Shown here piece after piece: positions 128-5,838 of a DNA stretch of 5,838 nt. The notes under the pieces are model-generated. The model had not been told where the DNA came from. It saw nothing but the letters and a program-made list of their open reading frames with translations, and did not search any database. Position 1 is the stretch's first letter. Every line of letters starts with the position of its first letter. A program made the position numbers and the translations under genes. Source of the DNA: an uncultured beta proteobacterium (GTDB taxonomy: Bacteria; Pseudomonadota; Gammaproteobacteria; Burkholderiales; Burkholderiaceae); the NCBI GenBank assembly GCA_903858445.1, contig CAIOIX010000327.1:1-5838 (forward strand), given 5' to 3'.

Positions 128-151
128 AAAAAACCACCCGAAGGTGGTTTT
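128..151 (-). terminator. Rho-independent terminator of the tRNA-Phe transcript.
   Basis: Stem 130-138 / 143-151 has a CCACC/GGUGG core flanked by A-U pairs. The loop CGAA reads as a UUCG tetraloop on the minus strand. On the minus strand the hairpin runs into a U6 tract (plus-strand A128-A133). It lies 10 nt past the tRNA CCA end. Confidence 0.8.
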
Positions 152-160
152 GATGTTTCT

Positions 161-236
161 TGGTGGCCCGGGGCGGAATCGAACCACCGACACAAGGATT
201 TTCAATCCTCTGCTCTACCGACTGAGCTACCAGGCC
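161..236 (-). tRNA. tRNA-Phe, anticodon GAA, 76 nt, CCA encoded.
   Basis: The reverse complement folds as a cloverleaf. The sequence is GGCCTGG TA GCTC AGTCGGTA GAGC A GAGGA TTGAAAA TCCTT GTGTC GGTGG TTCGATT CCGCC CCGGGCC A CCA. Acceptor stem is 7 bp with one G-U, the D stem is GCTC/GAGC, and the anticodon loop TT-GAA-AA is present. The T loop is TTCGATT and the discriminator is A. It closely resembles canonical proteobacterial tRNA-Phe. Confidence 0.93.
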
Positions 237-408: not shown

Positions 409-1404
409 TTAGAGCTTATACATGCCCTTCCAGTCCTCAGCTTTCCTCATTTTAGAAATGCCAGGCTTAATGCTGTCAGCAATTTGATAGTAGCCATCTT
501 CATAAGAGCTTGCATTAACAACGGTAACTCGAACACCAAGATCCTCAAGCATATTTAATTTGACTCGATCTCTGTCACCAATCTTTTTGCCCACCACTAC
601 ATGATGGTAAGTGGCTCCACCAATGTAGCTAGGATACATTTTTTGTACTGCAAACTTCTCAACCAAAAGCCACCACAAGATTGATTCTGTGTAATCCATT
701 CCCAGGCCAATCATATGAATATGATCTCTTAAAAATAGGTCAACCCAGGAATATGGAGCGCCAGTCTTTTCAAAATCAAAATTTGGAATGTTTCGATATA
801 TGGGTGATTGTAGAATTTTTATTTTGCTGTATTCAACGCCACTATGCAGATAATTCTTTATTTGGGCTTGATATCGAGCATATTGCCTATAGCCCAATGC
901 AATGCTCGTAGGCTGCATAGCTTCGCCATTAATTTTCCATAAAACTTTTTTTCTTGACTGTCTGCCCCTAAATAATGAAAAAGTATTTTCTTTAATTTCA
1001 GTAAATGGTGGTTTGTTGATTTCAAATCCTAAATGATTTGGAAAAAACCCATGAGCCAAAGAGAGTCCATGATCATAATTTGTTGTTAAGGTATGTTTGG
1101 TTAAGCAAGATAAAACATCATTTAAAGGCCTATTTCCTAACGCGCCAACTTCTCTAGCAACAATTGCTTGTAAATCAGTTTTCGTATGGATACGTGAATG
1201 CAATAGAAGCTCATCAAATACAAGCGTCAATGGCTTTTCATCAATATCCCTAACTATGTAATTAAGCTCTTTAGCTAAATTTTCTAAAATTGACTTCCAA
1301 GTAATAGCAAATTCATTGCCCAAAACAGGATTATCTTTTTTTAAGCTACGATTTGGGCCATTGCCAATCAATACTGTATTTTGAATTGCCATAACAAGCC
1401 CCAT
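409..1404 (-). CDS. SIR2_2/AbiH-like (DHS-like Rossmann fold) protein, 331 aa. Candidate NAD-targeting defence effector with a non-canonical active site.
   Basis: Long ORF with ordered motifs typical of prokaryotic SIR2-like domains. These are LIGNGPNRS (G-x-G, aa 13-20), LTTNYD (aa 106-111) and WKINGE followed by SIALGYRQY (aa 156-174). This block is the counterpart of K-L-H-G-S...s-i-v-l-T-e-e-D-Y. A further motif is IGLGMDYTESILWWLL (aa 232-247), the counterpart of f-i-G-y-S-l-x-D. The start is ambiguous: ATG at 1404 has no SD, and ATG at 1392 (MAIQN...) has a weak GGGG 9 nt upstream. GC is about 36% by hand count. Confidence 0.8.
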   Translation of the reverse strand: MGLVMAIQNTVLIGNGPNRSLKKDNPVLGNEFAITWKSILENLAKELNYIVRDIDEKPLTLVFDELLLHSRIHTKTDLQAIVAREVGALGNRPLNDVLSCLTKHTLTTNYDHGLSLAHGFFPNHLGFEINKPPFTEIKENTFSLFRGRQSRKKVLWKINGEAMQPTSIALGYRQYARYQAQIKNYLHSGVEYSKIKILQSPIYRNIPNFDFEKTGAPYSWVDLFLRDHIHMIGLGMDYTESILWWLLVEKFAVQKMYPSYIGGATYHHVVVGKKIGDRDRVKLNMLEDLGVRVTVVNASSYEDGYYQIADSIKPGISKMRKAEDWKGMYKL

Positions 1405-1451: not shown

Positions 1452-1631
1452 TTAGGTAAAAACATTAGGTTTTGAAAGATTGCTTAAAGATATTTGGGCA
1501 GACTTAATCTTCTGCCTAGCTCGTTCAGCCTTAACGGCATCCTGATCTCGTTTAACCCTATCTTTCATTGATTTAAGTCTTGCTTGCTCTGGACTTAAAG
1601 GTTTAATTGGGGCTATTTCATCGAATCTCAT
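1452..1631 (-). CDS. Small hypothetical protein, 59 aa, highly charged and probably helical.
   Basis: Hand translation gives MRFDEIAPIKPLSPEQARLKSMKDRVKRDQDAVKAERARQKIKSAQISLSNLSKPNVFT*. It is one codon below the apparent 60-aa cutoff of the ORF track. Its ATG (1631-1629) lies 2 nt after the stop of the upstream 48-aa ORF (TAA-ct-ATG). It has the same strand as the flanking genes and about 47% GC, like the 146-aa gene. No family recognised. Confidence 0.45.
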   Translation of the reverse strand: MRFDEIAPIKPLSPEQARLKSMKDRVKRDQDAVKAERARQKIKSAQISLSNLSKPNVFT

Positions 1632-1633
1632 AG

Positions 1634-1780
1634 TTACCCGATCTGTAGCGGTTGGTGGGGCACGTTATTAGCGCCAAAGATTGCCTTGAAAAGTGCATAG
1701 GCTTGAGCTTGGTTTTGTGCATAAAGGATGGTTTCCACCCACATTCCTGCTGCATTGACAGTTGCCTTATATCTTTTCAT
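1634..1780 (-). CDS. Small hypothetical protein, 48 aa.
   Basis: Hand translation gives MKRYKATVNAAGMWVETILYAQNQAQAYALFKAIFGANNVPHQPLQIG*. It is non-repetitive and has a globular-looking composition. It is tightly coupled to the next ORF. There is no recognisable SD (upstream aaatacttgc), and the ATG lies 10 nt after the 1791-1818 hairpin, which lowers confidence. Confidence 0.4.
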   Translation of the reverse strand: MKRYKATVNAAGMWVETILYAQNQAQAYALFKAIFGANNVPHQPLQIG

Positions 1781-1790
1781 GCAAGTATTT

Positions 1791-1818
1791 AGCGTCCAGC
1801 GTCTAGTAGCTGGACGCT
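1791..1818. repeat. Perfect 10-bp inverted repeat with an 8-nt loop. It contains copy A of the shared 21-nt motif (1797-1817).
   Basis: AGCGTCCAGC (1791-1800), gtctagta, GCTGGACGCT (1809-1818). It begins 8 nt after the stop of the 146-aa gene. No U tract follows on either strand, so it is not a canonical intrinsic terminator. The 21-mer CAGCGTCTAGTAGCTGGACGC recurs at 3160-3180 with 20/21 identity. Confidence 0.7.
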
Positions 1819-1825
1819 TATGTCA

Positions 1826-2266
1826 CTATCGCTTAAACCCACTCCTTAAACTGGCACTTGCAGTTTCTATTTGAGCATCGAGCTCGCCAGCCTCAACAGC
1901 TGACTTAATAGACTCCAGAGCTTTTACTAGCTCGGGACCACTTGCCACTTCAACGCTGGGTTTACCCTTTGCAAGCTCAATAGTCCAGCTGCCGTATTTC
2001 ACAGACACACAGACTTTGCCTTGCTCTGATTGGAACCACCAGGGCTTTAAACGCTTGGGTATTTCTACCTGCTTACGCAACCCCGTCTCTTTATCTTTAA
2101 TGGTTTTGAACTTTGTTACAACAAAGGGTGTGCCATCCATTTGACTCTTAGCCAACTGGATCTGCTCCCACAGCTTGCTAGAAAGCTTATTCCTACGAAC
2201 CACGATTGCAGGCATATGGGTTGGTTTTTTAACTGCTACTAGTTTTAAGCTACTTAATGCGCTCAT
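1826..2266 (-). CDS. Conserved hypothetical basic protein, 146 aa. It resembles a small protein family I recall from proteobacterial plasmids and genomic islands, possibly catalogued as a DUF (unverified).
   Basis: Strong SD AGGAG (2280->2276) lies 9 nt upstream of the ATG at 2266. The coding-like composition is about 45% GC. About 26 K/R against 14 D/E by my count. The N-terminal SSLKLV..KKP....RRNKL and C-terminal AVEAGELDAQIE..A motifs look familiar, but I cannot name the family with certainty. Confidence 0.8.
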   Translation of the reverse strand: MSALSSLKLVAVKKPTHMPAIVVRRNKLSSKLWEQIQLAKSQMDGTPFVVTKFKTIKDKETGLRKQVEIPKRLKPWWFQSEQGKVCVSVKYGSWTIELAKGKPSVEVASGPELVKALESIKSAVEAGELDAQIETASASLRSGFKR

Positions 2267-2312
2267 TGTTTTCTCCTATTGGTTAATGGGCACAAGTAGT
2301 TTGTTTTCGATC

Positions 2313-2341
2313 TCTTTATTTGGTCGACCTCTTTTTGCCAA
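2313..2341 (-). promoter_or_regulatory. Candidate promoter of the 146-aa gene, with a GGTCGACC palindrome in the spacer.
   Basis: On the minus strand: TTGGCA (2341->2336), a 17-nt spacer, TAAAGA (2318->2313). The spacer reads aaaaga-GGTCGACC-aaa, with the palindrome at 2322-2329. The recombinase promoter (3337-3365) has the same geometry and sequence. Confidence 0.45.
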
Positions 2342-2412
2342 ATCAGTTCTTTTGCCGCATTTTGGACAAGAAATTAGCGGTTTTTCTTTAAGAGAGATAA
2401 ATATTTTTGCGA

Positions 2413-2526
2413 GTTGCTTGGTTACAAAGTGGATGTCGCAAGAAGAAAAAGAAGTCGCAAAGTTGAGTTTGAGTAGTTGCTAGCCAGTTACTCGTAGTGG
2501 CAAATGAGTAACTCTGACCAAGCAAC
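2413..2526 (+). repeat. Nested inverted repeats in the divergent control region. Possible structured 5' leader or ncRNA, or a set of protein-binding sites.
   Basis: Outer perfect 10-bp inverted repeat: GTTGCTTGGT (2413-2422) / ACCAAGCAAC (2517-2526), extendable by 2 pairs. Inner hairpin: AGTTACTC (2486-2493) / GAGTAACT (2506-2513). GTCGCAA is directly repeated at 2435-2441 and 2454-2460, with the inverse TGCGAC at 2554-2559. GCAAC is clustered at 2592-2616. Confidence 0.5.
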
Positions 2527-2649
2527 ACAACTTCGTAACTTCTCTTTGAGATCTGCGACTTTTACTGCAACTGATCCCTTCTGATCTCTCTTGCAACCAA
2601 CAAAGCAACTGGCAACGAGAACTCAATTTAGAACACAAGGAGAATAAAA

Positions 2650-3108
2650 ATGAGAGAAATCGCAATCAGAGGTTTTATCAACGAGAAGTACAACACCCCA
2701 TTTGGCAAAGGATTATTTAGACGAGCCATCTATAACGGCTCAGTGGAGCTTCATAATCCAAATCAAAAGTATCTAGTAGACTTTTATGAATATGAACAAT
2801 TCCAACATACCGCTAAAACAGATGATCAAATCAGAACACTTAAGAAATTAGATGCCTGCGGCATAGGTAGTACGCCAGACTTAGTGATGTCGTGGATTGT
2901 GCATTACGAGCCATTAACCAAATCTAAAGACCCAGTTGATGGCTATTGCATCTACCTACAAACAACAGGTGAAGTGCATATTGAAATTGATGATGCTCTC
3001 AATGGAACAAAAGATGAGTGGGACTTAAAAGCCCATCATTGCAAAGCTGTAGGCGCCAATAAGCCCGTATTTGTTGCAACCAATGTAGATCTAAATACTA
3101 GGCAGTAA
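2650..3108 (+). CDS. Hypothetical protein, 152 aa, no recognisable family.
   Basis: Canonical SD AAGGAG (2637-2642) lies 7 nt upstream of the ATG at 2650. A strong terminator follows the ORF. GC is about 40%. I could identify no motifs. Confidence 0.8.
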   Translation: MREIAIRGFINEKYNTPFGKGLFRRAIYNGSVELHNPNQKYLVDFYEYEQFQHTAKTDDQIRTLKKLDACGIGSTPDLVMSWIVHYEPLTKSKDPVDGYCIYLQTTGEVHIEIDDALNGTKDEWDLKAHHCKAVGANKPVFVATNVDLNTRQ

Positions 3109-3130
3109 TTAAGCAAACCCGTTCAAATTA

Positions 3131-3207
3131 GCCCTACAAGCAATGATCTTCAAGCATCACAGCGTCTAGTTGCTGGACGCCAATCAAACAGCTTGTAGGG
3201 CTTTTTT
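3131..3207 (+). terminator. Rho-independent terminator with an unusually long 49-nt loop.
   Basis: Perfect 11-bp stem GCCCTACAAGC (3131-3141) / GCTTGTAGGGC (3191-3201), followed by T6 (3202-3207). It starts 23 nt after the 152-aa stop. The loop carries copy B of the 21-nt motif. Confidence 0.7.
3160..3180. repeat. Copy B of the 21-nt motif CAGCGTCTAGT(T)GCTGGACGC.
   Basis: 20/21 identical to 1797-1817 and in the same orientation. The similarity extends upstream (CAAGcAT versus CAAGtAT) with a 6-nt indel. The motif is internally quasi-palindromic (GCGTC...GACGC and CAGC...GCTG). Confidence 0.7.
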
Positions 3208-3270
3208 GACCCCAAACCCCAATTTGTCGTCTATTTCCCACGATATTTTGCTAAATACTAGTAACGCAAA

Positions 3271-3302
3271 CCACATAAGAAAATCATACTTTTCTTATGT
3301 GG
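3271..3302. repeat. Perfect 13-6-13 palindrome. Candidate tyrosine-recombinase core site or operator.
   Basis: CCACATAAGAAAA (3271-3283), tcatac, TTTTCTTATGTGG (3290-3302). It is flanked by a further ACGC (3264-3267) / GCGT (3305-3308) pairing. It lies 35 bp upstream of the recombinase -35 and 112 bp from its ATG. There is no adjacent U tract, and no incoming transcript that it would need to terminate. Confidence 0.6.
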
Positions 3303-3336
3303 TGGCGTAAGTCATTGATTCTTGGAAGATCTTGTT

Positions 3337-3365
3337 TTGGAAAATTTCGGTCGACCATTTAGCAA
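3337..3365 (+). promoter_or_regulatory. Candidate promoter of the recombinase gene, with a GGTCGACC palindrome in the spacer.
   Basis: TTGGAA (3337-3342), a 17-nt spacer, TAGCAA (3360-3365). The spacer reads aatttc-GGTCGACC-att, with the palindrome at 3349-3356. GAAAACACACTA follows at 3369-3380 and matches GAAAACAAACTA downstream of the 146-aa promoter. Confidence 0.45.
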
Positions 3366-3413
3366 TAAGAAAACACACTAATAGTGCTTTTTTATTTATG
3401 AAAGGTTTTCCAA

Positions 3414-3980
3414 ATGGCTCAAGCAAAAACCCTTACCCAAGCAGAACTAGATCAAGTGCTGCGTTACGTATCTACCAAAAAATATCCCGAACGCGATAGA
3501 GCGTTACTGATGATTAGCTTTCTTGCAGGACTTCGTGTTGCGGAGATTGCATCATTAACAATGGGTGACGTTTTAAATACAGCTGGCACAGTCAAAGCGG
3601 AAGTTCGCTTATCTGCCGAACAAACCAAAGGCAAATACCCGAGAACAGTTTTCTTATCCACTAAATTACGTGCTGAACTAGAAGAATATTTAAAAACCCG
3701 TCACGCAAAATATCCTGACATTCCACTGTTCCACACCAATACACGCCTAAGATTTACTGCTAATTCACTATGTCAGTGGTTCTATCACACCTATCGGAAT
3801 GCTGGAATTAGTGGCGCCAGCAGCCATAGCGGAAGAAGAAACTTTCTAACTTCGCTTGCCTCAAAGGGCGTAGGAGTGCGTGTACTTGCAGCGCTGGCAG
3901 GACACCGCAATATTGCCGTCACGATGAAATATATTGACGCCTCAGATGATATGAAGCGCAATGCTGTTGAGCTTATCTAA
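3414..3980 (+). CDS. Short tyrosine recombinase, 188 aa, catalytic domain only (FimB/FimE-sized).
   Basis: All catalytic signature residues are present in order. These are R41 (AGLRVAEI), K72/K74 (TKGKYPR), H138-x-x-R141 (HSGRRNF), H164 (LAGHRN) and Y173 (MKYI). The protein starts directly with the LTxxE...R..L...FLAGLR catalytic-domain opening, so there is no N-terminal core-binding or arm-binding domain. A weak SD AAAGG lies 8 nt upstream. Confidence 0.85.
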   Translation: MAQAKTLTQAELDQVLRYVSTKKYPERDRALLMISFLAGLRVAEIASLTMGDVLNTAGTVKAEVRLSAEQTKGKYPRTVFLSTKLRAELEEYLKTRHAKYPDIPLFHTNTRLRFTANSLCQWFYHTYRNAGISGASSHSGRRNFLTSLASKGVGVRVLAALAGHRNIAVTMKYIDASDDMKRNAVELI

Positions 3981-4778
3981 CTAGGTTTTAGCTGGGGGTT
4001 TAATAGATGGAAAAACTCCCAGCTCTGCATTGGCTACCAAATGTTTTGCTTGACCCAAGTAGCGACTAACGGCAATTGTCATTCGCCTTTTCTCCAGCTC
4101 AAAGCTCAAATCTTCTCCTGAAGTATCTCGAGCCAAAATATCTAAATCAATCCCAGCTTTCACACCAAGTTCATAGTTATTCAGCGTGGGATTTTCATTT
4201 CTTATCTGAAGCACCTTCAGAAGCATCTCCACAGTTGCCATCCGAATCTTGCTTTTAGTAATTTGACGCTTTGCGGTGCTTTGTTTCCAAATATCAATTT
4301 CCCGATTTGCATAAGCTTCTTTTAAGTGCCGACCAATTTGCCGCATCACTGTTTGCTTGCGCATTGTTAGCGGGATTTGAATAATCATTCGGTCTTTATC
4401 AAGCGCCAATCCTTCAATTTCATTGCGTCCAATTTGAAGAACCTTTTTTAGCGGCTTGGTTTCGGCAAAAATCTTTCTTCCGTTGCCCAGCCACCAAGCC
4501 GCAAATTCTTTACGAACATCCCCAAAATCACGATACAGCGCCTCAAGCTCTCCCCGTCCGCCGCTCTTGCAGCAAATTAGATATTCATCACTAGCCTGCA
4601 ACGTTCGATACCACCAGTAAGCAGGGGACTTTCTAGCTTCCTTCAATTCACTGCCTGGACTCACGCCACGCCTACTGAGCGAGCCAGGAATCATTTTGAT
4701 GTGCTTGTTGGGTAATTGCTCTTCGTTTTCTTCGGTCATTTTGTTAACAAGAATCTCGTTAATTAGTCGTAAATTCAT
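3981..4778 (-). CDS. Hypothetical protein, 265 aa. Possible DNA-binding or regulatory protein, family not recognised.
   Basis: Long ORF with about 45-50% GC. It has a Trp/Tyr-rich motif SPAYWWYRTLQASDEY and a possible HTH-like stretch, NNYELGVKAGIDLD. The start is uncertain: ATG 4778 (weak aaag upstream) or Met14 at 4739. Its stop codon (3981-3983) directly abuts the recombinase stop (3978-3980). Confidence 0.75.
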   Translation of the reverse strand: MNLRLINEILVNKMTEENEEQLPNKHIKMIPGSLSRRGVSPGSELKEARKSPAYWWYRTLQASDEYLICCKSGGRGELEALYRDFGDVRKEFAAWWLGNGRKIFAETKPLKKVLQIGRNEIEGLALDKDRMIIQIPLTMRKQTVMRQIGRHLKEAYANREIDIWKQSTAKRQITKSKIRMATVEMLLKVLQIRNENPTLNNYELGVKAGIDLDILARDTSGEDLSFELEKRRMTIAVSRYLGQAKHLVANAELGVFPSIKPPAKT

Positions 4779-4801
4779 TTTACTTTAAACATTAAATATC
4801 T

Positions 4802-4831
4802 ATTAAAGCCATATTTTATATGGACTGTTAA
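4802..4831 (-). promoter_or_regulatory. Candidate promoter of the 265-aa gene, with a palindrome in the spacer.
   Basis: On the minus strand: TTAACA (4831->4826), an 18-nt spacer, TTTAAT (4807->4802). The spacer contains the palindrome CCATAT-ttt-ATATGG (4809-4823). Motif reading in AT-rich DNA, so chance matches are likely. Confidence 0.25.
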
Positions 4832-4978
4832 CACGATTATATCTAATAGGCTGTGTAGGCTACTTTCATCAATATAAATGTAATACTGGTTTCCATAGTG
4901 ATTCATATCACCGCTCTTTAACAAACGAAGTGTTCTAAAGCTGTAAAGCGCCACTGGCGCCAAAGCGGTAATCACTAT

Positions 4979-5010
4979 TGCTGCAAGGCATCCCGCAATG
5001 CAGCATTTTT
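4979..5010 (+). terminator. Terminator-like hairpin plus T5 in the leader of the 5032 gene. Possible attenuator.
   Basis: TGCTGCA (4979-4985), a 13-nt loop, TGCAGCA (4999-5005), then TTTTT (5006-5010). It ends 10 nt before the SD TGGAG (5021-5025). There is no upstream plus-strand gene for it to terminate. Confidence 0.3.
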
Positions 5011-5031
5011 AACTTAAAAATGGAGTTTTAT

Positions 5032-5838
5032 ATGACACAAACAACTACAGCAGTAAAAACAGCATTTCAACCAACAATAGAAAACCTCGCTTTTGCAGGT
5101 GGTCTAGTAACGCAGTTGGATGGCTTAGTAAGTAAACGTCAGCAGTGGGAAGCTACTGACTACAAGAAAGCAAACGACGGCTTGTACAGCTTGTTAGCCA
5201 GTTGTTTAGACGTCTTCAACAGCAAGTTTATCAATGCCAGCGATGACGACAAAAAAACCCTGCGTGGCGAACTAAAAAATCGTCTAACAGCGGACGGAGT
5301 TCGAGTACAACGCAATACAACCACCTTAACCATGTTTGTGCGTTTCGTATTTGGATCCGATCGTAAGCGTGCGCACGGTTATACCTATGTGCTCAAAGCT
5401 GCGCTTTCATACAAAGTTACAGCAGCTGGCTTACCAACCTGGATTGTTGAGCAGGGCGGCATTGAAGAAGTAAGGCGTCAGATGATTGTCTCGGAAAAAG
5501 CCTTGGAAAACCGAGCAGCCCTTGCAAATGCAAAAGCACAGGTTATTGCTAAGGTTGAGCAAGCTTCTGTAACACCACTAGCAAAGTTCAGCATGACTGG
5601 GGTTAGCGGGGACTATGCATTACTTCTAGCCAAGCCTGCGCCAGATGGGACTGTATCAATCGTGGGCGTGATCTCTGACATCAACGAAGCCTTCTACAAC
5701 GCTTGTTTGTTAAAGATGGCTCGCGTTAGAGCAGCAGATAACGCTGAATCACTTGCTCTTAGCAAAGAAGGTACGGACTTATTAGCTGGCGGTGGTTCTG
5801 CAGCAGCTAACGATTCTGTAGTTCAAAAAGAACTGCTT
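5032..5838 (+). CDS. Hypothetical protein. The first 269 codons are present and the ORF is open at the right edge.
   Basis: I hand-translated all 269 codons and found no stop. The sequence begins MTQTTTAVKTAFQPTIENLAFAGGLVTQLDGLVSKRQQWEATDYKKANDGLYSLLASCLDVFN. A later stretch reads RVQRNTTTLTMFVRFVFGSDRKRAHGYTYVLKAALSYKV...EQGGIEEVRRQM..., and the window ends in ...VVQKELL. SD TGGAG lies 6 nt upstream. GC is about 48-53%. It is missing from the ORF track, presumably because it has no in-window stop. Family not recognised. Confidence 0.8.
   Translation, partial: MTQTTTAVKTAFQPTIENLAFAGGLVTQLDGLVSKRQQWEATDYKKANDGLYSLLASCLDVFNSKFINASDDDKKTLRGELKNRLTADGVRVQRNTTTLTMFVRFVFGSDRKRAHGYTYVLKAALSYKVTAAGLPTWIVEQGGIEEVRRQMIVSEKALENRAALANAKAQVIAKVEQASVTPLAKFSMTGVSGDYALLLAKPAPDGTVSIVGVISDINEAFYNACLLKMARVRAADNAESLALSKEGTDLLAGGGSAAANDSVVQKELL

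Follow-up and report, generated by a model that had tools for sequence, protein, structure and literature searches.

Can an immune SIR2 enzyme do without its catalytic histidine? The question is raised by a gene on the reverse strand of a 5,838-nucleotide stretch of DNA from an uncultured beta proteobacterium (hereafter the window: positions 1 to 5,838 of contig CAIOIX010000327.1, GenBank assembly GCA_903858445.1), in which a standalone SIR2-like protein carries an asparagine where most of its relatives carry that histidine. Few immune effectors are as widespread as the SIR2 enzymes that cleave nicotinamide adenine dinucleotide (NAD+), whose Asn/His pair is treated as a catalytic signature. 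We would place an even bet on the reading that the gene encodes a functional, NAD+-depleting, single-domain SIR2 enzyme of the defence type, in which Asn is able to replace His, and that it travels on a Polynucleobacter-type integrative island, as exchangeable single-gene cargo at the end next to the tRNA. The gene product was classed as a SIR2_2/SIRim-type standalone protein from the list of open reading frames (ORFs), homologue starts, an AlphaFold2 (AF2) model, Foldseek and a family profile. The longest ORF spans 409..1404 on the minus strand (331 amino acids), and residue numbers throughout follow this ORF. As every homologue begins at its Met5 (MAIQ/MTIQ...), with the two closest relatives called as 327 amino acids, and as a G-rich stretch lies upstream of Met5 and none ahead of Met1, the gene is probably 409..1392, 327 amino acids, with the first four codons (MGLV, 1393-1404) untranslated. 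No identical record was found for the exact sequence of the protein.

Which residues would form the active site? The motif set that a preliminary description of this DNA had read in the 331-residue ORF is present in full at the expected residues: GNG (14-16), TTNYD (107-111), KINGE (157-161), SIALGYRQY (167-175) and IGLGMDYTE (232-240). The glycine-rich G14-N15-G16 loop (1357..1365, minus strand), at the N-terminus of the Rossmann fold, is strongly conserved (G14 in 170 and N15 in 168 of 171 aligned sequences), and we take it, from general knowledge of SIR2 proteins, to be a putative NAD phosphate-binding loop. In a profile alignment, the L-T-T-N-Y-D block of the family falls on T110-T111-N112 of ThsA and its W-x-I-H-G block on Y-K-M-H152-G, and both blocks are also in register with LTTNFD and HIHG of FAM118B. 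Because the family motifs align with these blocks, Asn109 (codon AAT, 1078..1080, minus strand) is assigned as the catalytic Asn, equivalent to ThsA N112, and Asn159 (codon AAT, 928..930, minus strand) as the occupant of the catalytic-His position, equivalent to H152 of BcThsA, both as first proposed. Asn109 is invariant (192 of 192 aligned sequences), whereas column 159 reads His in 166, Asn in 25 and Arg in one of 198 aligned relatives, the remaining six being gapped. By this alignment, the window protein departs from the consensus of its own family, which is His (W-x-I-H-G), and Asn is a minority, clade-specific and recurrent state. A compensating His elsewhere in the protein was ruled out, as no alignment column gains His in all Asn forms. 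The IGLGMDYTE block (685..711, minus strand) contains the invariant residues G233 and E240, the latter found in 198 of 198 sequences. Residue 111, the Asp of TTNYD (codon 1072-1074), is Asp in 146 of 192 aligned sequences and in nearly all members of the broad family; in the close clade of the window protein ten residues occur there (Y, H, F, C, S, A, G, Q, N, D), and the window lineage has Asp.

Is the Asn a sign of decay? All Asn forms fall within this close clade (P0001-P0046, at least 37% identical, freshwater Polynucleobacter-like), of which about half the members carry Asn at 159. With His-type outgroups as the root of a neighbour-joining tree, Fitch parsimony gives His as the ancestral state and at least seven changes at the site, at least six of them between His and Asn within the close clade and one from His to Arg outside it. 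Close relatives differ in state: P0034 has Asn and P0036 and P0038 have His, and P0009 (His) is nested among P0005-P0008 (Asn). The only codons found at this site in the recovered loci are CAT/CAC and AAT/AAC, so that each switch between His and Asn is a single transversion. A His codon has seven single-step amino-acid neighbours; since only Asn appears at the site in the close clade, we infer that Asn is specifically acceptable there. The Asn state is kept in lineages that are mutually only about 50% identical. The ratio of nonsynonymous to synonymous substitution rates (dN/dS) of the window gene against its two closest relatives (95% and 87% amino acid identity, both with AAT) is 0.07 and 0.11, and 0.13 between these two relatives. 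Across 41 sequences, 12 of them Asn forms, invariant residues are G14, W36, K57, P58, T107, T108, N109, E139, F145, R146, W156, G160, G171, W220, D222, L225, G233, E240, W244, L246 and L286. Given dN/dS values of 0.07-0.13 and the invariance of the other active-site residues, selection clearly keeps the gene intact, and the Asn form does not look degenerate. A pseudogene or decaying gene was rejected on the same grounds, and the degenerate paralogue that the preliminary description had offered as an alternative is not supported, the Asn state also being recurrent and kept in divergent lineages. As far as we could find, a recurrent natural His-to-Asn replacement under purifying selection has not been described in the literature.

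What kind of SIR2 protein is it? A word-indexed search returned 55 relatives, and an exhaustive search returned 752 cluster representatives (50% identity clusters) at E ≤ 1e-3, 342 of them at E ≤ 1e-10. Nearly all are 280-340 amino acids long, about 300, and standalone. The Pfam model SIR2_2 (PF13289) matches 21 of 41 family members, and in a sample of the broad family ten of ten exceed its gathering score (29-43 bits), and their homology to the window protein is at E 1e-17 to 1e-38. The AF2 model, built with 41 family sequences as input, is a single compact alpha/beta domain (predicted local distance difference test 89.7, predicted template modelling score 0.90). Foldseek against the PDB returned nine best matches, the only ones with E ≤ 0.001, and all were EcThsA, SeThsA, the SIR2 domain of DSR2 or KomC (E 4e-8 to 1e-5, probability 1.0, query TM-score 0.52-0.57); the canonical human sirtuin SIRT2 appeared at E > 0.2. 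A sequence search of the PDB with the single window protein gave no match, and the family profile alone succeeded, reaching BcThsA and EcThsA at E 3e-5 and human FAM118B at E 5e-4. The protein is thus modelled as a Zn-less SIR2 Rossmann fold, like ThsA and DSR2 rather than like a canonical sirtuin, and its first description as a SIR2-type protein holds. NCBIfam and PHROGs gave no match for it, and neither these nor Pfam and PADLOC found an additional domain, in agreement with the earlier statement that no sensor or partner domain is fused to it. The SIR2_2/'SIRim' superfamily has been described previously (bioRxiv 10.1101/2024.09.18.613514).

Does the gene act alone or together with a neighbour? 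About 100 loci were recovered from genomes, metagenomes and viral contigs, their ORFs were called and the neighbours were clustered. Across the loci of the broad His-type family a single recurrent conserved partner is absent; the close clade is bound to a single island backbone. Its gene order, in about 20 loci, is c4 (<), c2 (>), the SIR2-like gene (>), REC (<), c5 (<), DUF6641 (>) and a small gene (>), with c2 ending 25 nucleotides before the SIR2-like gene and the latter ending 3 nucleotides from REC. In the window, the SIR2-like gene lies at the opposite end, between a 59-amino-acid gene and a tRNA gene, and c2 touches REC; this arrangement is also found in L030, L034, L101 and L102, and other arrangements occur in L011, L025 and L035. 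A search with c2 returned more than 150 homologues. Four independent islands hold the same backbone without the SIR2-like gene (L104, L107, L108-110 and L105): c2 lies directly against REC in L104 and L107, a 110-amino-acid gene sits between c2 and REC in L108-110, and in L105 an Mrr_cat/RE_AspBHI_N restriction enzyme follows DUF6641 and the 59-amino-acid gene, i.e. it takes the slot of the SIR2-like gene in the window. Since these four islands carry the backbone without it, c2 and the 59-amino-acid gene are, on gene order, parts of the backbone, and the SIR2-like gene is a single-gene cargo that can be exchanged at two hotspots. We therefore ruled out a two-gene system of c2 and SIR2: c2 always occurs with c4 and REC, has more than 150 homologues, is present in the four SIR2-free islands and abuts REC in the window. 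The 59-amino-acid ORF was likewise ruled out as a partner or antitoxin, as it belongs to the c8 family and precedes the Mrr-type gene in L105. Of the two options previously raised for a defence module, the single gene is favoured by its standalone cargo state, by the mobile island and by the defence-rich slots and neighbourhoods of its relatives. His and Asn forms occupy the same slots of near-identical islands (L014 with His, L013 and L015 with Asn).

On the window itself, the backbone genes are the 59-amino-acid gene (1452..1631, minus strand; E 3e-14 to c8, and downstream of DUF6641 in related islands, whether or not these carry the SIR2-like gene), DUF6641 (1826..2266, minus strand; PF20346, 51 bits, recurrent in related islands), the 152-amino-acid c5 (2650..3108, plus strand), the 188-amino-acid tyrosine recombinase REC (3414..3980, plus strand; catalytic domain only, Phage_integrase 91 bits), the 265-amino-acid c2 (3981..4778, minus strand; E 2e-43 to c2 of L001) and the 5' part of c4 (5032..5838, plus strand; E 6e-17 to c4 of L022), which is divergent from c2 and runs off the window. 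No Pfam, PHROG or NCBIfam family was found for c2, c4 or c5. The backbone as a whole (integrase...AAA ATPase, c4, c2 | REC, c5, DUF6641, 59-amino-acid/AlpA-like gene; window 1452-5838; L001, L007-L027, L104-L110) was previously unannotated. Cargo observed on this island family comprises the SIR2-like gene, the Mrr-type restriction enzyme, the 110-amino-acid gene, DUF4747 and toxin-antitoxin pairs. REC has the size of FimB/FimE and is kept in 24 loci besides a separate full-length integrase at the island end. As its stop codon directly abuts whichever gene occupies the slot between c2 and REC, we speculate that REC might be involved in cargo exchange.

The preliminary description had placed the gene next to tRNA-Phe. 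A complete tRNA-Phe(GAA) gene is indeed present at 161..236, co-directional with the SIR2-like gene (minus strand) and at the cargo end of the island, with a terminator-like hairpin just beyond its 3' end (130..151, minus strand). What does this adjacency mean? Full-length integrases (365-421 amino acids) lie at the far backbone end in L011, L104 and L107, and next to the integrase of L011 and L107 lies a tRNA-Phe with the same sequence as that of the window or nearly so (identical in L107). L107 also carries two tRNA-Phe 3' fragments (at about 12216 and 13211) at its cargo end, a classical attL/attR picture, the two fragments implying tandem insertions. The cargo end has a complete tRNA-Phe in the window, L030 and L102 (identical in L030 and L102) and a tRNA-Val in L105. 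The similarity between the window and L102 (1798-1802) ends at window position 157, just beyond the tRNA-Phe 3' end; since it stops there, the DNA beyond the tRNA is read as variable, i.e. as an integration hotspot. From these integrase/tRNA layouts and from this similarity limit, the tRNA adjacency is best read as the edge of a tRNA-targeting integrative island. In L003 (Polynucleobacter sp. UK-Gri1-W3) a 3' remnant of the gene remains at 8001-8557 (residues 147-330, 88% nucleotide identity), about 100 nucleotides from a tRNA-Met rather than a tRNA-Phe, which is evidence of cargo turnover. The SIR2-like gene has a lower G+C content than the rest of the window (36.2% vs 42.4%), a modest difference, so that its earlier description as clearly more AT-rich was right in direction and too strong in degree.

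Whom would such a cargo gene serve? The L011 island carries two Dcm-type methylases and an HNH protein, the L104 island an EcoRI-type methylase with GmrSD/HNH and DUF3800, and the L107 island DUF4747 and a Phd/YoeB pair. His-type members of the broad family lie between a PglX-type methylase and PglZ, inside BREX loci, in L055 and L080, and recurrent neighbours of the His-type family are HsdM, a RES/HEPN_RES_NTD1 protein, a 520-amino-acid dCMP-deaminase protein, an ORC/CDC6-like protein and a GHKL ATPase with a Shedu-like C-terminus (SduA_C). The neighbourhoods of homologues are thus defence-rich (BREX, type I restriction-modification, RES, deaminase), and at the level of gene content they match the pattern expected of a defence gene. 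It is conceivable, and in our view very unlikely, that the gene serves the mobile island rather than host phage defence, through post-segregational killing (addiction) or competition between elements. Such a role would fit the confinement of all close-clade copies to one island family, the presence of toxin-antitoxin pairs and restriction genes in the same cargo regions, and the loss or truncation of the gene in some islands, as in the L003 remnant. However, no antidote gene is linked to it, the upstream 59-amino-acid and c2 genes being backbone that is present without the SIR2-like gene, and the broad family occurs in unrelated contexts including BREX and restriction-modification loci. Moreover, defence and benefit to the element are not mutually exclusive.

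How could a sensor-less SIR2 protein with Asn at the His position work as an effector? We speculate that NAD+ would be bound through the GNG loop and T107-T108-N109, that the protein would be held inactive until infection, that it would then be activated by a phage-derived cue and/or by self-assembly, as in ThsA, KomBC, Avs5 and FAM118B, and that removal of nicotinamide from NAD+ would collapse the NAD+ pool and abort the infection. Activation by filament formation or oligomerisation has been reported for ThsA, Avs5 and FAM118B (PMC12700824) and for KomBC (PMC13454610), and because the window protein has no sensor domain, it would probably be controlled by self-assembly or by binding a phage product directly. 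The catalytic His normally faces the 2'/3'-hydroxyls of the ribose (PMC12700824); in the close clade, the residue facing the nicotinamide-ribose hydroxyls would be either His or Asn. In SirTM, Gln137 replaces the catalytic His and Asn118 is kept, and NAD+ is still cleaved, with robust mono-ADP-ribosylation (PMC4518038). Since an amide residue supports cleavage there with the Asn retained, Asn159 may do so as well: its amide may hold the ribose as Gln137 does in SirTM, and cleavage would persist, perhaps more slowly. A slower cleavage could in turn lower the self-toxicity of an effector that has no separate sensor.

The same precedent would also suit a different chemistry, which we consider quite unlikely here, namely that the clade has shifted from NAD+ hydrolysis to the transfer of ADP-ribose onto a protein or nucleic acid, a non-water acceptor attacking the ribose as in SirTM (PMC4518038). 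Like SirTM, the window protein keeps the Asn (Asn109) and has an amide side chain in place of the His (at 159); Arg146 is invariant, and the Asp of the C-pocket (D111) is relaxed in the clade. Yet His and Asn interchange among close relatives (P0034 with Asn, P0036 and P0038 with His), which speaks against a switch of chemistry tied to this residue. No macrodomain and no obvious target gene is linked in the recovered loci, and the fold matches ThsA, DSR2 and KomC, with SIRT2 at E > 0.2 and no SirTM structure among the listed Foldseek matches.

Several points weigh against our preferred reading of a working NAD+-depleting enzyme. Loss of the His has abolished activity in each defence or defence-like SIR2 assayed so far: the exchange H146A does so in KomC (PMC13454610), and H206A in FAM118B, where the authors note that the same His matters in ThsA (PMC12700824). 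The PDB holds a structure of KomC H146N with NAD fragments (9xvc, in the Foldseek list), presumably a slowed or dead enzyme. Residue 111, nearly invariant in the broad family, varies in the close clade, which hints that chemistry or ligand may have shifted. The window protein itself scores 22.3 bits against SIR2_2, below the gathering score of 24.5, and so its assignment to SIR2_2/SIRim is drawn from its homologues, the modelled structure and the family profile, not from its own Pfam score. PADLOC gave no full-length match, the ThsA models matching weakly over model positions 37-177, i.e. their N-terminal half. No experimental work on the approximately 300-amino-acid standalone family was found in the literature, and no trigger or sensor was identifiable for the window protein. 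Finally, the apparent enrichment next to defence genes is a raw neighbour observation.

The first of these points bear on a further explanation, namely that the Asn forms are dead or strongly attenuated SIR2 proteins that bind NAD+, ADP-ribose or a nucleotide signal. Instead of depleting NAD+, they would serve as a sensor, as a sponge or decoy (e.g. for phage NAD-related counter-defence) or as a regulator. The loss of activity on His-to-Ala exchange in KomC (PMC13454610) and FAM118B (PMC12700824) and the use of H146N for the KomC structure would fit it, as would the pattern of conservation, in which the ligand-binding residues are invariant while the two residues closest to catalysis (H159 and D111) vary; purifying selection fits a binding role equally well. 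We nevertheless regard this explanation as unlikely. The gene is present in a single copy per locus, without an adjoining His-type paralogue that it could regulate, and the sharing of cargo slots by His and Asn forms in near-identical islands (L014 vs L013/L015) suggests equivalent function. In addition, Asn alone replaces His; smaller or hydrophobic residues, which should be acceptable if binding were all that mattered, never do.

Is the protein a member of a known defence system? By analogy, the closest functional counterpart of the window protein would be the SIR2 module of ThsA or KomC, and the closest in organisation is AbiH. ThsA (BcThsA 6LHX, EcThsA 8WC0, SeThsA 7UXT) is the best structural and profile match, with N112/H152 in register, and a common NADase effector logic is presumed; the window protein differs in its low identity (12-15%), in having Asn for His and in being a single domain of 327 amino acids without a SLOG/Macro sensor. 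The Thoeris partner, a TIR-domain ThsB gene, was not found in the window, nor was a recurrent TIR neighbour in the about 100 loci. KomC (264 amino acids; 8ZSF, 9XVC) is likewise a short, essentially single-domain defence SIR2 (Foldseek E 7e-8, TM-score about 0.55-0.57), in which the His (H146) is required (PMC13454610); it differs in forming a working filament together with KomB and in its dependence on KomA and dITP. Neither HAM1-like KomB nor deaminase KomA domains, the Kongming partners, were found among the window neighbours or near any other member of the family, and there is no conserved partner across the loci. The N-terminal SIR2 domain of DSR2 superposes (8YGC, 8WKT, 8XFF), and DSR1 and DSR2 are single-gene systems like the window protein; however, DSR proteins have about 1000 amino acids with a large C-terminal sensor for the phage tail tube, whereas the 327-amino-acid window protein has no sensor region. 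Neither a HerA ATPase nor a short pAgo with APAZ, as expected for SIR2-HerA and SPARSA, was found in the window or related loci, and the SPARSA SIR2 is a weak fold match (Foldseek E 0.07).

The likeness to AbiH of Lactococcus (PF14253) lies in the organisation: a single gene of about 300-350 amino acids, SIR2-like, on mobile elements, with an N-terminal I-G-N-G and a mechanism that is unknown (PMC13064643). Membership was rejected, as the window protein has no match to the AbiH model at E ≤ 1 and only 4 of 41 family members match at E ≤ 0.01; in the broad-family sample one of ten reaches the cut-off (30.9 bits), and the family scores better on SIR2_2. Outside bacterial defence, FAM118B/FAM118A are vertebrate SIRim proteins that are standalone (about 350 amino acids) and ThsA-like, as is the window protein; FAM118B is eukaryotic, requires both His and Asn, and is activated through head-to-tail filaments and the pairing of the two paralogues (PMC12700824). 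SirTM shares the amide residue in place of His with the Asn retained (PMC4518038), but the residue is Gln rather than Asn, and SirTM is a relative of canonical sirtuins in an operon with a macrodomain and GcvH-L, not an immune SIR2; no macrodomain neighbour is found here. Because the defining partner genes, fused domains or model matches are lacking, the window protein falls outside Thoeris, Kongming, DSR, SIR2-HerA, SPARSA and AbiH.

Several further observations concern the window and distant relatives. A palindrome of about 26 nucleotides, GCGTCCAGC-GTCTAGTA-GCTGGACGC, is present in two copies (1789-1817 and 3160-3183) that are 95% identical as direct repeats; one lies right after the DUF6641 stop codon and the other right after that of c5, so that the divergent genes DUF6641 and c5 lie between them. 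Roles as terminators or as binding sites of the short recombinase are conceivable. A 16-nucleotide inverted repeat (276-291 / 438-453, 94% complementary), borderline against chance, has one arm inside the SIR2-like coding sequence, at its 3' end, and the second arm in the spacer that separates this gene from the tRNA. A promoter scan of the window gave fewer matches than shuffled sequence, and none upstream of the SIR2-like gene. In Salmonella Infantis SARB27 (L103, 8989-9939), a 28%-identical homologue annotated as 'hypothetical protein' lies among the transfer genes of a PFGI-1-class integrative and conjugative element (ICE); it adjoins an 873-amino-acid helicase-like protein, with DGQHR and DndD/DndE genes a few kb away. 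The record is filed in a phage collection and is a bacterial contig. A phage origin of the gene was rejected: there is no PHROG match and nothing significant in BFVD, the lone match to a phage record is actually this Salmonella ICE, and eight distant matches lie in IMG/VR contigs.

In summary, we found a recurrent exchange of His for Asn at the catalytic position of a standalone SIR2-like protein family. The family of about 300 amino acids may reasonably be proposed as a candidate new single-gene system, because PADLOC has no model for it and it lies inside BREX, restriction-modification and other defence loci. A further question that it poses is how a SIR2 protein lacking a sensor domain would be held inactive and then activated. 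The close clade amounts to a natural experiment, in which the change from His to Asn is recurrent and under purifying selection, and matched His and Asn proteins occur in near-identical settings (P0034 vs P0036, L014 vs L013). Such pairs let one ask whether the His is required for NAD+ cleavage, or whether it tunes rate or product. More boldly, and with a likelihood that we place well on the low side, the alternation of His and Asn may be an adaptive toggle in a very large immune family of sensor-less SIR2 proteins, in which Asn forms would cleave NAD+ without a general base or transfer ADP-ribose, and in which switching would tune self-toxicity or escape phage counter-measures. If this were true, the 'essential' His of immune SIR2 proteins would be dispensable in a natural scaffold, and the family would constitute a new single-gene defence system in tRNA-island cargo hotspots and in BREX and restriction-modification loci.

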